DNA of 46,932 nucleotides from a virus: UHGV virus genome UHGV-0283311; one strand, given 5' to 3'. A program made the position numbers and the translations under genes. Positions 1 to 45,720 of the stretch are shown here, one piece after another; position 1 is the stretch's first letter, and each line of letters starts with the position of its first letter. The notes below the pieces were generated by a model. That model was not told where the DNA came from. It worked only from the letters and a program-made list of their open reading frames with translations, and did not search any database.

Positions 1-10
1 GAGACTTATC

Positions 11-145
11 TTTTTAAAAGGTCTTTAAGAGGGTCTTTTAATGAGGTTTCGCTAGGTAGGGTAGTGTCCGGTTGGGTCTGGTAAGGTCAGGTTAGGTAAA
101 GTGAGGTAAGGGTGGATGGTAGTAGCCACGTTAAAAATCTACCAA
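11..145 (+). repeat. Repeat unit copy 0: conserved 39-nt arm, (GGTNN)n pentamer tract, conserved-loop hairpin
   Basis: 11-49 is identical to 1280-1318; 50-116 is GT-rich with 5-nt periodicity; hairpin stem tggtag 117-122 pairs ctacca 139-144, loop tagccacgttaaaaat. Confidence 0.6.
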
Positions 146-201
146 GTTTCTAAAGAGTCTTCTGTTGAGGGTTCTTTACAAACAACTTAACAACAAACTA
201 A

Positions 202-809: not shown

Positions 810-1250
810 ATGAATACAAAAGCATTAGCAGCAAAGTTTAGTTACGGTGACACTGTATCACACTCTGAGATGGACACCTTCTTAGGTATTGTGAAGCCAA
901 CTTATCAAGGTGACATTGTTAAGTACGAAGATGAAATGAAGGCTTATGCGCTTACACGTCTAAACCGACTTGAGAAGTTTATTGAGAAGCTTCTTAAAGA
1001 AGAGAAGATTTATCTGGTTGCTTCAATGGGTGTTGGTTATCGTGTGGTTGAACCTAAGCATCAAGCAACTATTGCAAAACGTAAAATGTCTGGTAAGATT
1101 GGTCGCGCTTTAAAGCAAGCCACTCAAGCGATTGAGAATGTGAACACTATGGCACTTAGCCATCAAGAACGCTCACGACTGATTGAACAGCAAAACCATT
1201 TAGCTGCTATGAAAGCTAACATTAACAAGCAACGTAGAAAACCTTTCTAA
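810..1250 (+). CDS. hypothetical protein
   Basis: 146-aa ORF, ATG 3 nt after upstream stop, RBS gaaggtaa; followed by terminator. Confidence 0.6.
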   Translation: MNTKALAAKFSYGDTVSHSEMDTFLGIVKPTYQGDIVKYEDEMKAYALTRLNRLEKFIEKLLKEEKIYLVASMGVGYRVVEPKHQATIAKRKMSGKIGRALKQATQAIENVNTMALSHQERSRLIEQQNHLAAMKANINKQRRKPF

Positions 1251-1261
1251 GTTGACTAGGT

Positions 1262-1288
1262 AGCCTCTTCGGAGGCTCCTTTTTAAAA
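1262..1288 (+). terminator. Rho-independent terminator
   Basis: agcctc-ttcg-gaggct hairpin followed by cctttttaaaa. Confidence 0.7.
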
Positions 1289-1673
1289 GGTCTTTAAGAG
1301 GGTCTTTTAATGAGGTTTGGTATGGTCAGGTATGGTGTGGTGTTGTAAGGTTTGGTGCGGTCAGGTTAGGCTTGGTATGGGTAGTTAATCGGAGCTACAT
1401 AAAAATCCGATTACATCACTTAAGAGTCTTCTAAGAGGGTTTTTAAGTGGTGTTTGGTAGGATAGAGTAAGGTAAGTTAAGGTAGGGTGAGGTCTGGTAT
1501 GGTAAGGTAATGTATGGGTAGTTAGTCTCAGCTACATTAAAATGAGACTCACATCACTTAAGAGTCTTTAAAAAGGGTTTTTAAGTGTTGTGAGGTGATG
1601 TAAGGTCGGGTATGGCTATATCTTGTATGGTTTGGTATGGAAGGATGGCAGTAGCCTTATAAAAAATCTGCCA
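1280..1673 (+). repeat. Tandem array of three repeat units (A 1280-1413, B 1414-1549, C 1550-1673)
   Basis: Each unit has a conserved arm (ttaagagtcttctaagagggtttttaagtg-like), 11-14 in-register GTNNG pentamers, then a hairpin with conserved loop (gctacat[a/t]aaaa or tagccttataaaaaat) and covarying stem. Confidence 0.7.
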
Positions 1674-1691
1674 AATAAGCTATAAAATCTG

Positions 1692-1726
1692 TTGACAGTT
1701 CAGGTGTTATAGCTTATTTTTATACT
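1692..1726 (+). promoter_or_regulatory. sigma70-like promoter candidate
   Basis: ttgaca 1692-1697, 17-nt spacer, tatttt 1715-1720, then tatact; about 40 nt upstream of the 1765 gene. Confidence 0.4.
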
Positions 1727-9553: not shown

Positions 9554-17572
<8,019 letters not shown>

Positions 17573-34100: not shown

Positions 34101-34177
34101 TGGAGGCGGGTGCAGGAGTCGAACCTGCCGATACCATGCTAATGAGACATGTGAGACGCCCTTTCTCTATACCCGCA
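34101..34177 (-). tRNA. tRNA(CAT): Met, fMet or Ile2
   Basis: loop CTCATTA, D-stem gaga/tctc, 1-72 mismatch; isotype unresolved. Confidence 0.6.
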
Positions 34178-34267
34178 ATTCTTAATGACCAGACCAAATA
34201 TCTTCTTTGTCCGATTAACTTTCAGATGAGTAGATTAAGTTTGCTGTAATTGGTCTTCTGTCAAAAC

Positions 34268-34345
34268 TGGCGTTCCAGAAGGGATTTGAACCCTCAGATA
34301 TCCACTTTGAAAGAGTGGTGACTTTACCGTTTTGTCTACTGGAAC
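34268..34345 (-). tRNA. tRNA-Glu(TTC)
   Basis: perfect acceptor gttccag/ctggaac, perfect anticodon stem ccact/agtgg, loop CTTTCAA. Confidence 0.8.
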
Positions 34346-34352
34346 ATTAATT

Positions 34353-34429
34353 TGGTCTCTGTTGGAGGACTTGAACCTCCGGCCTTACCGCCCCAAACGG
34401 AACGCTCTACCAAGCTGAGCTAAACAGAG
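34353..34429 (-). tRNA. tRNA-Pro(TGG)
   Basis: perfect acceptor and T-stem, D-arm gctc-agcttggta-gagc, loop TTTGGGG. Confidence 0.75.
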
Positions 34430-44194: not shown

Positions 44195-45260
44195 TTAACA
44201 ACCTTTTTAATCTTACTCTCTATATAGTTATATAGTACTATATAGTATCTTAGTAACTACCTAGTGGTCTTAATAGCCCCTCTGTATAATCCTTCTAACA
44301 AGCCCTCTAACAAGCCTTCTTAACAACCTATACAATCACCTTAACCATCTCTCTATACACTCTTAGAAGCTCCTATACACCTCTTAATCTCTATGTCAGC
44401 TATGACACTCTCTATAGGTGTTCACTAGGTGCTACTAAGCCTCTATATAGACTGTTTTAACAAACTTAACAGGAATATCTTTACAGGCCTTATCTCACAA
44501 GGTCTAACACGGTACTAACAAGGTATCTTATAAGCCTGTTATTACCTGTATTTTAGAAAGACTGTATAGGTAATTATTCAGATTTTTAAAATTTTTATAA
44601 AATAGGACTATCAAGTCATTTTTTAGGGTCTTTGAAGGAACTGAAAAATATCTGTAGAAGATGTATATCTGCTTGGTAGCCCTTAACAGCTCCCTTACAA
44701 GTACTTTGCAAAATTTTAAAATATCCTTAACAATCTCTTAACAGTTACTACATCTTCTTAACATCTCTTCAAAGGTCTTAACAGATTCTTAACAGAACTA
44801 ACAAGAGCGTAACAGTTTTCTAACAAGTGCTGAATAGGCTTTACAGAATCTTAACAGATGACTAACAAGAGCTAACAAGTTAATTTTTAAGAGTTATTTT
44901 GTTAAGATAATTAACAAGTTTCTAACAAGTGTTTAATCTTTTTAACAATCTATTAACATGGTCACTACTCTTTCCTTATCGTTCCCTTTCCTTTCTTAGT
45001 GATTCTTTAAACATACCTCTTAAAAGCTCTCTATAGCCCCTTGTAAGCTCTTTTAAACCTCTTCCTAGTAATTACACCCCAACTGTACAGATACCTCTTT
45101 ATAGGGCTTTACAGGGGCTTTAAAGGCTATGTCAAAGGTTCTTACAAGGCTTTTACGTGGTTTTAACAGAGATTTAACAAGGGGCTAACAAGTTGCTAAC
45201 AAGTGCCTTAAAAGCATAACTATGTAGGGATTGTTAAGAAATTGTTAAGAAAATGTTAAG
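44195..45260. repeat. Non-coding region with about 30 copies of TAACA(A/G) in both orientations (iteron-like array)
   Basis: cttaacag, ctaacaag and tgttaag recur at 10-12-bp spacing (e.g. 44777-44830); AT-rich stretches at 44100-44160 and 44580-44610; no ORF of 60 aa or more. Confidence 0.6.
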
Positions 45261-45270
45261 GGGGCTAGCA

Positions 45271-45313
45271 TTTACGTAACTTTATAGCCCCTTTTACGTA
45301 ACTTTAAAGCCCC
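45271..45313. repeat. tandem direct repeat of 21 bp
   Basis: tttacgtaactttatagcccc then tttacgtaactttaaagcccc. Confidence 0.6.
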
Positions 45314-45720
45314 TATAACATACTTTTTAGTGACTATCAAGGGGTTGTTTAGTTATTCACAAGAATACTAATGAGATGATAAAGCTTACACCCTTATAAG
45401 ATTCTTTTAAGTCTCTGGGAAGCTCTAGGAAGGGCTTTTTAGGGTGAGTTAATGCAACCCCTTAAGTTAGGTTGATAAGGCTGTTATAGGGCGTTATAGA
45501 GCGTTTAAGGGGTTGCCCTTCCCTTTCGGGTTATGGGCTTATATTTAAGTTGATTTGATAAGAGGTTATAGAGTAGACTATAGAGTTATTGCTTTTAAGG
45601 TCTGATAAGATTCTGGAAAGGTGAGGGAAAGGGATTGTATAAGGATTCGATAGACGTAAAAAAGCCCCTTTAAATAGGGGCTGTTAGGGTATCTGGGGCT
45701 AAATAGCCCCGCTGCGTCGA

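Follow-up and report, generated by a model that had tools for sequence, protein, structure and literature searches.

A pentamer-repeat unit at the start of virus genome UHGV-0283311 very probably encodes a guide RNA of a type II VIPR locus

VIPR (Viral Interference Programmable Repeat) is an RNA-guided, CRISPR-like system by which phages find the DNA of rival genetic elements, described for the model phage SUSP1 in a June 2026 preprint (10.64898/2026.04.26.720920) and in a companion preprint reporting cryo-EM structures (10.64898/2026.04.26.720927). According to these sources, the vrRNAs of SUSP1 are discrete RNAs of ~100 nucleotides (nt) that co-purify with the protein Vipr, as seen by small-RNA sequencing and pull-down, and guide it in trans to DNA (10.64898/2026.04.26.720920). 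Vipr polymerises on the vrRNA with one protomer per pentamer. The two variable bases (NN) of each pentamer form base pairs with DNA, leaving one target base in three unread, and the vrRNA tail forms a pseudoknot that is visible by cryo-EM (10.64898/2026.04.26.720920, 10.64898/2026.04.26.720927). SUSP1 carries one vrRNA upstream and three downstream, of which vrRNA1, with 12 repeats, was the RNA used for the biochemistry and structures (10.64898/2026.04.26.720920). Here we examine 46,932 nt of virus genome UHGV-0283311 (the window), which belongs to a Felix O1-like myovirus (Ounavirinae; genus Felixounavirus) and which over its first 2.4 kb shares 92-94% identity with many phages of Escherichia and Salmonella. 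We focus on the repeat unit that lies at its very start.

We conclude, with a probability of roughly 94%, that window positions 8-147 are a vrRNA gene of a type II VIPR locus in a Felixounavirus. The unit is a member of an already described system, known from the near-identical phage SUSP1, and the value of the finding is therefore one of correct annotation and not of discovery. By analogy with SUSP1, the unit would be a trans-acting guide RNA gene that is functional in kind. Its parts, and the two genes that follow it, are:

8-47, plus strand: type-B constant 5' hairpin (minimum-free-energy fold), carrying most of a 40-nt repeat
45-110, plus strand: guide region of 13 GGY/NN pentamers (tract parsing)
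111-147, plus strand: vrRNA 3' tail, an H-type pseudoknot (covariation; SUSP1 sequence)
146-183, plus strand: tract-less copy of the 5' hairpin, UAAAGAGUCUUCUGUUGAGGGUUCUUUA (fold), 37 nt before the vipr start codon
220-807, plus strand: vipr, encoding a Cas7/Csm3-like RAMP (AlphaFold2 model, Foldseek, SUSP1 identity)
810-1250, plus strand: vap1, encoding the VIPR accessory protein (SUSP1 identity)

Much of the evidence comes from the protein that would read the unit. The AlphaFold2 model of the 220-807 product (pLDDT 93, pTM 0.85) has significant Foldseek matches in the PDB only to Csm3, Cmr4, type VII and type IV Cas7 and Cas6 (probability 1.0, E-values of 5e-5 to 1e-3). The protein is identical to SUSP1 Vipr at 191 of 195 positions, and the published GGY contacts (H17, E71, M72, R138, C173, D177, W178 and R179) are all present, together with the G-loop. 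By orthology the protein would polymerise on vrRNA, and a Cas7-like protein polymerising along RNA would explain why the repeat is so strictly phased. The second gene product matches SUSP1 vap1, which occupies the same position, at 145 of 146 residues; its AlphaFold2 model, built on an alignment of four sequences, is all-helical (pLDDT 76), with no Foldseek match in the PDB better than E = 1. For type II systems, the vap product is predicted to bind DNA and to be winged-helix-like or helix-turn-helix-like (10.64898/2026.04.26.720920). Searches of both products against Pfam returned no family, and PHROGs returned only groups of unknown function.

The association of this protein with pentamer tracts extends well beyond the Felix O1-like phages, as vipr homologues number in the hundreds and occur in unrelated phages and prophages. 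Searching IMG/VR with a profile of the 220-807 protein yielded 80 distant vipr loci, 58 of which carry tracts of strict period 5 with the D-G-Y consensus on the gene strand; these tracts lie immediately upstream of vipr or just after the second gene (129 on the plus strand versus 6 on the minus strand). In two distant metagenomic contigs, vipr is followed by a gene of ~167 amino acids (166-168), and the pair is flanked by (NNGGY)n tracts. Variants of the module were seen at distant vipr loci (L191, 2430-2975; L159, 2310-2965; L129, 4100-4700), one with AGC/NN pentamers in place of GGY/NN and others with up to six units per array, joined by long structured linkers, or with tails containing a T-arm-like hairpin (GGTTCGAGxCC); ARAGORN and Rfam searches of the distant arrays, including those with T-arm-like tails, gave no match. 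Most matches from scanning IMG/VR with a 14-base motif were due to chance, and only the few Felix-like contigs among them proved useful.

The guide region itself follows the code of this system. Its 13 pentamers, a number within the 9-16 expected of a vrRNA in the SUSP1 clade, carry, in phase, the triplets GGT, CGC, GGT, GGT, TGT, six times GGT, AGT and GGT, each with two variable bases, so that D-G-Y is kept in 12 of 13 repeats with the 5-nt register intact. The variable bases read TT TA AG AG CC TG CT AA CA TA AA GA AA, from which the expected gapped DNA pattern is TTxTAxAGxAGxCCxTGxCTxAAxCAxTAxAAxGAxAA (as a query in nNN form, nTTnTAnAGnAGnCCnTGnCTnAAnCAnTAnAAnGAnAA). Across 41 distinct tracts from 16 Ounavirinae loci (508 pentamers), the clade logo is D-G-Y-N-N, with G 77%, T 16%, A 6% and C 0% at the first position, G 97% at the second, and T 90% and C 9% at the third. 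The tracts are rich in G (43%) and poor in C (8.5%), and their lengths of 45-91 nt differ almost solely by multiples of five. Their NN bases are hypervariable between phages that are ~93% identical elsewhere.

Downstream of the tract, the tail folds through stem S1 (112-115/126-129) and stem S2 (118-122/139-143), with an A-rich linker at 130-138; because the loop of S2 encloses the 3' arm of S1, the fold is an H-type pseudoknot. Four paralogous tail variants occur, both stems covary between them, and 83 of 84 occurrences are fully paired. S1 appears as GUAG/CUAC, GUGG/CCAC or AAGG/CCUU, and S2 as AGUCUCA/UGAGACU, AAUCGGA/UCCGAUU (also UUCGAUU, with one G.U pair), GGUAG/CUACC or GGCAG/CUGCC. 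The tail at 111-147 is identical to that of SUSP1 vrRNA1, which sits in the same place directly before vipr and shares both the tail and the downstream hairpin with window positions 111-183. Applied to SUSP1, our unit parser returned four vrRNAs with 12, 15, 14 and 11 repeats, in agreement with the preprint's counts.

Units of the clade consist of three parts, namely a constant 5' hairpin, a tract of 9-18 pentamers and a constant 3' element. The hairpin at 8-47 has ~17 base pairs and a UAAG loop, and its apical stem (GUCUU/AGGGU) contains many G.U pairs. It exists in two stem versions and the tract-less copy, and is nearly invariant among units and phages. It is predicted in every plus-strand copy at -11 to -20 kcal/mol, compared with about -5 kcal/mol for the complement, and this preference points to an RNA made from the plus strand. 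SUSP1 vrRNAs are described as tract plus tail, and we found no discussion of a 5' hairpin in the accessible parts of the two preprints (10.64898/2026.04.26.720920, 10.64898/2026.04.26.720927). Since tract and tail together measure 103 nt here and mature vrRNAs ~100 nt, the 5' hairpin is probably removed or marks the 5' processing site. We infer that it could serve as a maturation or loading signal, and as homology for loss and gain of the vipr-vap cassette.

The original prediction had seen a pentamer tract and a hairpin in front of the gene at 220. The tract is indeed present at 45-110, but what was taken for one hairpin is two things, the pseudoknotted tail and the separate hairpin at 146-183. 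With 18 identical copies among relatives, the latter is the most frequent hairpin variant; SUSP1 has it unchanged, and it may serve as an operator or processing site. The accessible text of the VIPR preprint yielded no discussion of its counterpart (10.64898/2026.04.26.720920).

The unit belongs to a locus in which an upstream vrRNA array (one whole unit and one cut by the window edge) is followed by vipr (220-807), vap1 (810-1250) and three further vrRNAs (1277-1676). The remaining features of the locus are:

1-9, plus strand: tail end of the edge-cut upstream vrRNA, letters GAGACTTAT (from relatives)
1262-1285, plus strand: intrinsic-terminator-like hairpin after vap1, with a UUCG loop and a U run
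1277-1414, plus strand: downstream vrRNA 1, with a type-B hairpin holding the second copy of the repeat (1279-1318), 13 pentamers (1314-1378) and a tail (1379-1414)
1415-1552, plus strand: downstream vrRNA 2, with a type-A hairpin, 13 pentamers (1450-1515) and a tail (1516-1552)
1553-1676, plus strand: downstream vrRNA 3, with a type-A hairpin, 10 pentamers (1588-1640) and the tail variant GGAAGGATGGCAGTAGCCTTATAAAAAATCTGCCAAAT (1639-1676)
1673-1720, plus strand: AT-rich hairpin closing the array (inverted repeat; promoter scan)

The U run of the hairpin at 1262-1285 runs into the next 5' hairpin, and the closing hairpin at 1673-1720 overlaps the -35 and -10 elements of the next gene's sigma-70-like promoter (TTGACA at 1692), an overlap of terminator and promoter. 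A scan of the 46.9-kb window for 'xGT' phasing placed period-5 tracts at four places, all on the plus strand (~30-129, 1289-1393, 1436-1530 and 1574-1648), and none on the minus strand, bearing out the earlier count of the first unit as the fourth of its kind. Its description as a further member of the modular unit found in tandem at 1279-1680 likewise held, whereas its proposed role as a leader or regulatory module in front of the 220 gene did not. Rfam covariance models run on positions 1-1800 gave only noise at E ≤10, with nothing at gathering score and no match to a CRISPR direct-repeat family.

What lies to the left of the window is known from relatives. In heid, ASO1B, wV8, Moogle and SUSP2, the letters GGGTAGTTAGTCTCA.CTACATTAAAATGAGACTTAC immediately precede the homologue of window position 10. 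They end a complete further unit, to the left of which come first a sigma-70 promoter (TTGACATAGAAAATTTGGTGAGTATACT) and then a DNA ligase gene. Given this arrangement, the phage most likely has five vrRNAs, two upstream and three downstream.

A match to foreign DNA was found for a sister of the 45-110 guide. The gapped pattern of guide 1314-1378 matched three metagenome contigs that represent one Escherichia coli element, and the guide agrees at 24 of 26 NN bases with a 184-amino-acid open reading frame (ORF) of this E. coli satellite, with 12 of 12 skipped bases falling on codon position 3. In a second satellite variant, four of the five nucleotide differences within the target site fall on skipped positions. 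With a skip of 1 nt, 10-14 of 56 distinct clade guides, SUSP1 guides included, reach an NN match of at least 80% on each of three satellite variants, as compared to only 0-1 guides with skips of 0, 2 or 3 nt. These data reproduce the skip rule and the satellite target of the preprint, and show that the locus is armed. Within the 46.9-kb window, none of its four guides has a self-target of at least 80%, the best matches (65-75%) being at background level. The satellite was reached only through the gapped-pattern scan of metagenomes; a BLAST search of E. coli genomes for it with the arrays and the capsid/protease region found no match. A separate match of guide 1588-1640 (10/10, at 5694-5722 of L212, a 54-kb IMG/VR contig) was treated as chance, which it probably is: the skipped bases are at codon position 1, neither known phages nor E. 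coli genomes match the contig, and about 0.2-0.6 such matches are expected by chance.

The E. coli element, for which many Ounavirinae vrRNAs have matches, evidently corresponds to the satellite of the preprint. It measures ~11.3 kb (L219, 660-11950, E. coli 1297KP; also L216, L218 and L220-L225), is inserted in yecE or between tonB and yciI, and carries genes for a serine recombinase, baseplate and tape-measure proteins and small ORFs, with HNH, Dam methylase and AP2 as optional additions; its relatives occur in 547 of 5,426 complete E. coli genomes. The satellite has a vrRNA of its own (L219, ~10000-10200; L218, 9558-9667; L221, 11830-11914), driven by a promoter (TTGACG...TATAAT); its 13 pentamers are followed by a tail that differs little from the Felix-type tail GGGTGGATGGTAGTAGCCAC.TTAAAAATCTACC, and then by a terminator. 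As no vipr is present on the satellite, this vrRNA would have to use the protein of the helper phage.

Several other explanations of the unit were weighed. The exact duplicate that drew attention to it is real but spans 40 nt rather than 39 (10-49 equals 1279-1318), and with ~1e9 position pairs x 4^-40 in 47 kb its occurrence by chance is negligible. One explanation, offered by the original prediction itself, was that the window starts at a genome end and that the duplicate reflects terminal redundancy or an assembly artefact at contig ends, as might be expected from a copy lying within 10 bases of the window start and from the short direct terminal repeats of Felix O1-like phages (PMC3185647, PMC4837284). 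However, relatives run on leftward into the further unit, promoter and ligase gene described above, and in more than 90 complete relatives, as in independent assemblies of many phages, both copies are internal and lie ~1.27 kb apart on either side of the same two genes. Moreover, the mapped 608-bp direct terminal repeat of UAB_Phi87 adjoins the homologue of wV8 gp055 (PMC4837284). That position is tens of kilobases from the VIPR locus, whose counterpart in wV8 is genes 94-95; the side of the map that bears the terminase and the tRNAs is found ~29 kb into the window. The left context of the relatives and the distant terminal repeat exclude both terminal redundancy and assembly duplication, to which we leave next to no probability, and the 40-nt duplication has nothing to do with genome ends. 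The copies part ways right after 40 nt. The duplicate consists of the type-B 5' hairpin and the first pentamer, which by coincidence is GGTTT in both units. A role in cis, as a 5' leader of the 220 operon acting as a TRAP-like track, attenuator or antiterminator, is very improbable. In its favour, a promoter precedes the unit and the first gene follows it, the preceding unit's tail plus a U run resembles an intrinsic terminator (and is annotated so in ASO1B), and the hairpin at 146-183 adjoins the ribosome-binding site. TRAP prefers GAG>UAG>AAG triplets at 5-nt spacing, which the first-position order G>U>A of the tract, with C nearly absent, recalls. Yet the same units occur in tandem downstream of genes, and in phages lacking both genes, and their SUSP1 equivalents are the discrete, Vipr-bound and trans-acting RNAs of the preprint (10.64898/2026.04.26.720920). 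Furthermore, the hypervariable NN bases match foreign DNA under the skip rule, a property for which a cis track has no need. A cis role is conceivable for the hairpin at 146-183.

An element acting as DNA, such as a G-quadruplex or R-loop origin, a primase or recombination hot spot, or iterons, would account for a strongly G-rich strand downstream of a promoter and for arrays that flank an indel (Felix O1 lacks the two genes), but we find it scarcely credible. GG is missing from 23% of pentamers, yet the central G and the pyrimidine hardly vary, a pattern that fits recognition by a protein and not a G-quadruplex. In addition, the hairpins rest on G.U pairs and fold on the plus strand only, the tail covaries as RNA, and the tracts are always on the gene strand in the 58 distant loci. 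The logo and the RAMP fold had likewise led us to drop earlier ideas, including a CsrA or Hfq sponge, a TRAP-like track, a binder of tRNA CCA ends, a Shine-Dalgarno mimic, a G-quadruplex or R-loop origin, T7-type primase sites, Chi-like sites and type III antitoxin (ToxI-like) repeats. More serious, if still unlikely, is that 8-147 is a real vrRNA gene that is currently idle or decaying, transcribed and perhaps loaded but with no living target, and maintained through hitch-hiking and gene conversion between units. Several observations weigh against our reading of the unit as a vrRNA gene, and the first two speak for such decay. The gapped pattern of guide 45-110 had no exact match for 10-13 dinucleotides in viral, metagenome and genome collections, and its best score on nine satellite variants (16-18/26) is at noise level. 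Its second pentamer (50-54) is the aberrant CGC, with C in first position in ~0% of more than 500 clade pentamers, such that one protomer site of the guide may be weak. The promoter expected to drive the unit lies outside the window and is known from relatives alone, and the support for expression and processing is orthology with SUSP1 and the experiments of the preprints. Natural targets, too, are reported for only 20 of the 41 clade vrRNAs in the preprint (10.64898/2026.04.26.720920), and the orphan units of vipr-less relatives have a lower GGY fraction (0.59 versus 0.76). Against decay stand the consensus kept in 12 of 13 repeats with its register, a tail and hairpin identical to functional SUSP1 parts, and a target search that, in the E. 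coli pangenome where the targets reside, sampled 9 of ~547 satellite-bearing genomes.

The orphan units just mentioned occur in Felix O1, VpaE1_ev78 and other phages that lack vipr and vap1 and in which the same promoter and closing hairpin enclose one or two units (Felix O1, L126, 2143-2400; VpaE1_ev78, L214, 2443-2700; L030, 617-1000; L088, 619-1010). In the phage collection, 231 records match the array, 118 of them with a close vipr and ~113 seemingly without; the GGY fraction of orphan units given above comes from 69 pentamers only, and these are still in the 5-nt register. This arrangement of units, promoter and closing hairpin is what recombination between an upstream and a downstream unit is expected to leave. 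VpaE1_ev78 is presumably a natural isolate named after its closest relative, VpaE1, and so provides no direct evidence for cassette loss; the idea that it is a laboratory deletion derivative of VpaE1 was dropped on the basis of this naming. Rather speculatively, and with the odds against it, vipr-less units might, instead of being mere remnants, borrow Vipr from co-infecting relatives or act as decoys against VIPR, with the G.U-rich hairpin and its tract-less copy serving as a type II maturation or loading signal that is cut by Vipr in a Cas6-like manner, maybe also as an autoregulatory operator, and with the hairpin copies offering homology for loss and regain of the vipr-vap cassette.

Combining these results with those on SUSP1, we can sketch how the locus would work; the steps are experimental in the 98%-identical SUSP1 system and carried over to the phage of the window by orthology. 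The array would be transcribed from the sigma-70 promoter just left of the window, and RNAs of ~100 nt, each comprising a pentamer tract and the pseudoknotted tail, would accumulate. One Vipr protomer would then bind per pentamer, building a right-handed filament that buries GGY and presents NN, and the 13 NN dinucleotides of guide 45-110 would base-pair with DNA in an NNxNNx... pattern that leaves out one base in three. Bound DNA would be silenced at the level of transcription, an effect that vap1 would enhance, and the natural targets would be, as for the clade, mostly the small E. coli satellite that parasitises these phages.

Some observations in the window and in databases concern other subjects. 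A block of 24 tRNA genes occupies ~29278-34429 on the minus strand; in the related phage Bas63, a Ro60-like protein is encoded beside the tRNA block, and some 'tRNAs' have been suggested as possible Y RNAs (PhageMaP preprint, 10.1101/2024.10.10.617714). Dense short tandem and direct repeats with periods of 10-31 nt fill positions 44200-45500 (for example two 22-nt copies at 45271-45314), and this cluster, which has no relation to the pentamer units, may have a promoter or regulatory role. A Felixounavirus VIPR locus is also found at ~90.1-92.4 kb of GU169904.1 (Staphylococcus phage SA1, 147 kb), with 93% DNA identity and a Vipr 99.5% identical, and the record looks chimeric or contaminated.

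The system matters because it provides an independent second solution to programming proteins by RNA, one that has a gapped code and an ancestral Cas7-like reader and that phages use against their own parasites. Intergenic pentamer units of Felix O1-like phages that are unannotated or tagged 'repeat_region', 'DR_4' or 'terminator' in well over a hundred records (118 with vipr) become interpretable genes, and recognising their guides lets the targets of each phage be read from sequence. This bears on phage-therapy cocktails that contain these phages, as the phages are armed against satellites and possibly also against one another.

The closest known system is that of SUSP1 itself. Its locus likewise follows the DNA ligase gene and precedes a helix-turn-helix regulator and a DHFR/TS block, is served by the same promoter, encodes a Vipr 98% and a vap1 99% identical, and has the same 5' hairpins, tail variants and pre-vipr hairpin; units have 9-18 GGY/NN repeats, and guides of the clade converge on the same E. 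coli satellite. The two differ in that SUSP1 has one unit upstream of vipr as compared to two here and in most Felixounaviruses, in that their NN codes are entirely different, and in that SUSP1 is a Suspvirus. Class 1 CRISPR systems (Csm3, Cmr4, Cas7) share with VIPR a RAMP with a thumb and a G-rich loop that polymerises along a guide at a fixed register, a constant structured handle capping a variable guide, and tandem units separated by constant hairpins. They differ in using a 6-nt register instead of the 5-nt one of VIPR, and a contiguous guide rather than a gapped one that pairs through two of every five RNA bases and passes over one target base in three; VIPR, moreover, has no cas1 or cas2, spacer acquisition or other Cas subunits, is encoded by a virulent phage and is directed at a satellite. 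The locus in the window does not have the make-up of a CRISPR-Cas locus, consisting of units of hairpin, tract and tail with two genes between the arrays, among unrelated neighbours. Solitary or orphan CRISPR repeats and RNA anti-CRISPRs in phages resemble the orphan units and the satellite-encoded vrRNA in being guide-like RNAs on elements without an effector. TRAP offers a more distant likeness, as it too is an oligomer that reads a triplet every 5 nt in unstructured RNA, with a tolerant first position and two nearly invariant ones (Pfam scans of six neighbouring proteins were the extent of the search for TRAP homologues here). Its fold is unrelated, however, and it forms a closed 11-mer ring that acts in cis on its own leader, where the spacer bases carry no information.

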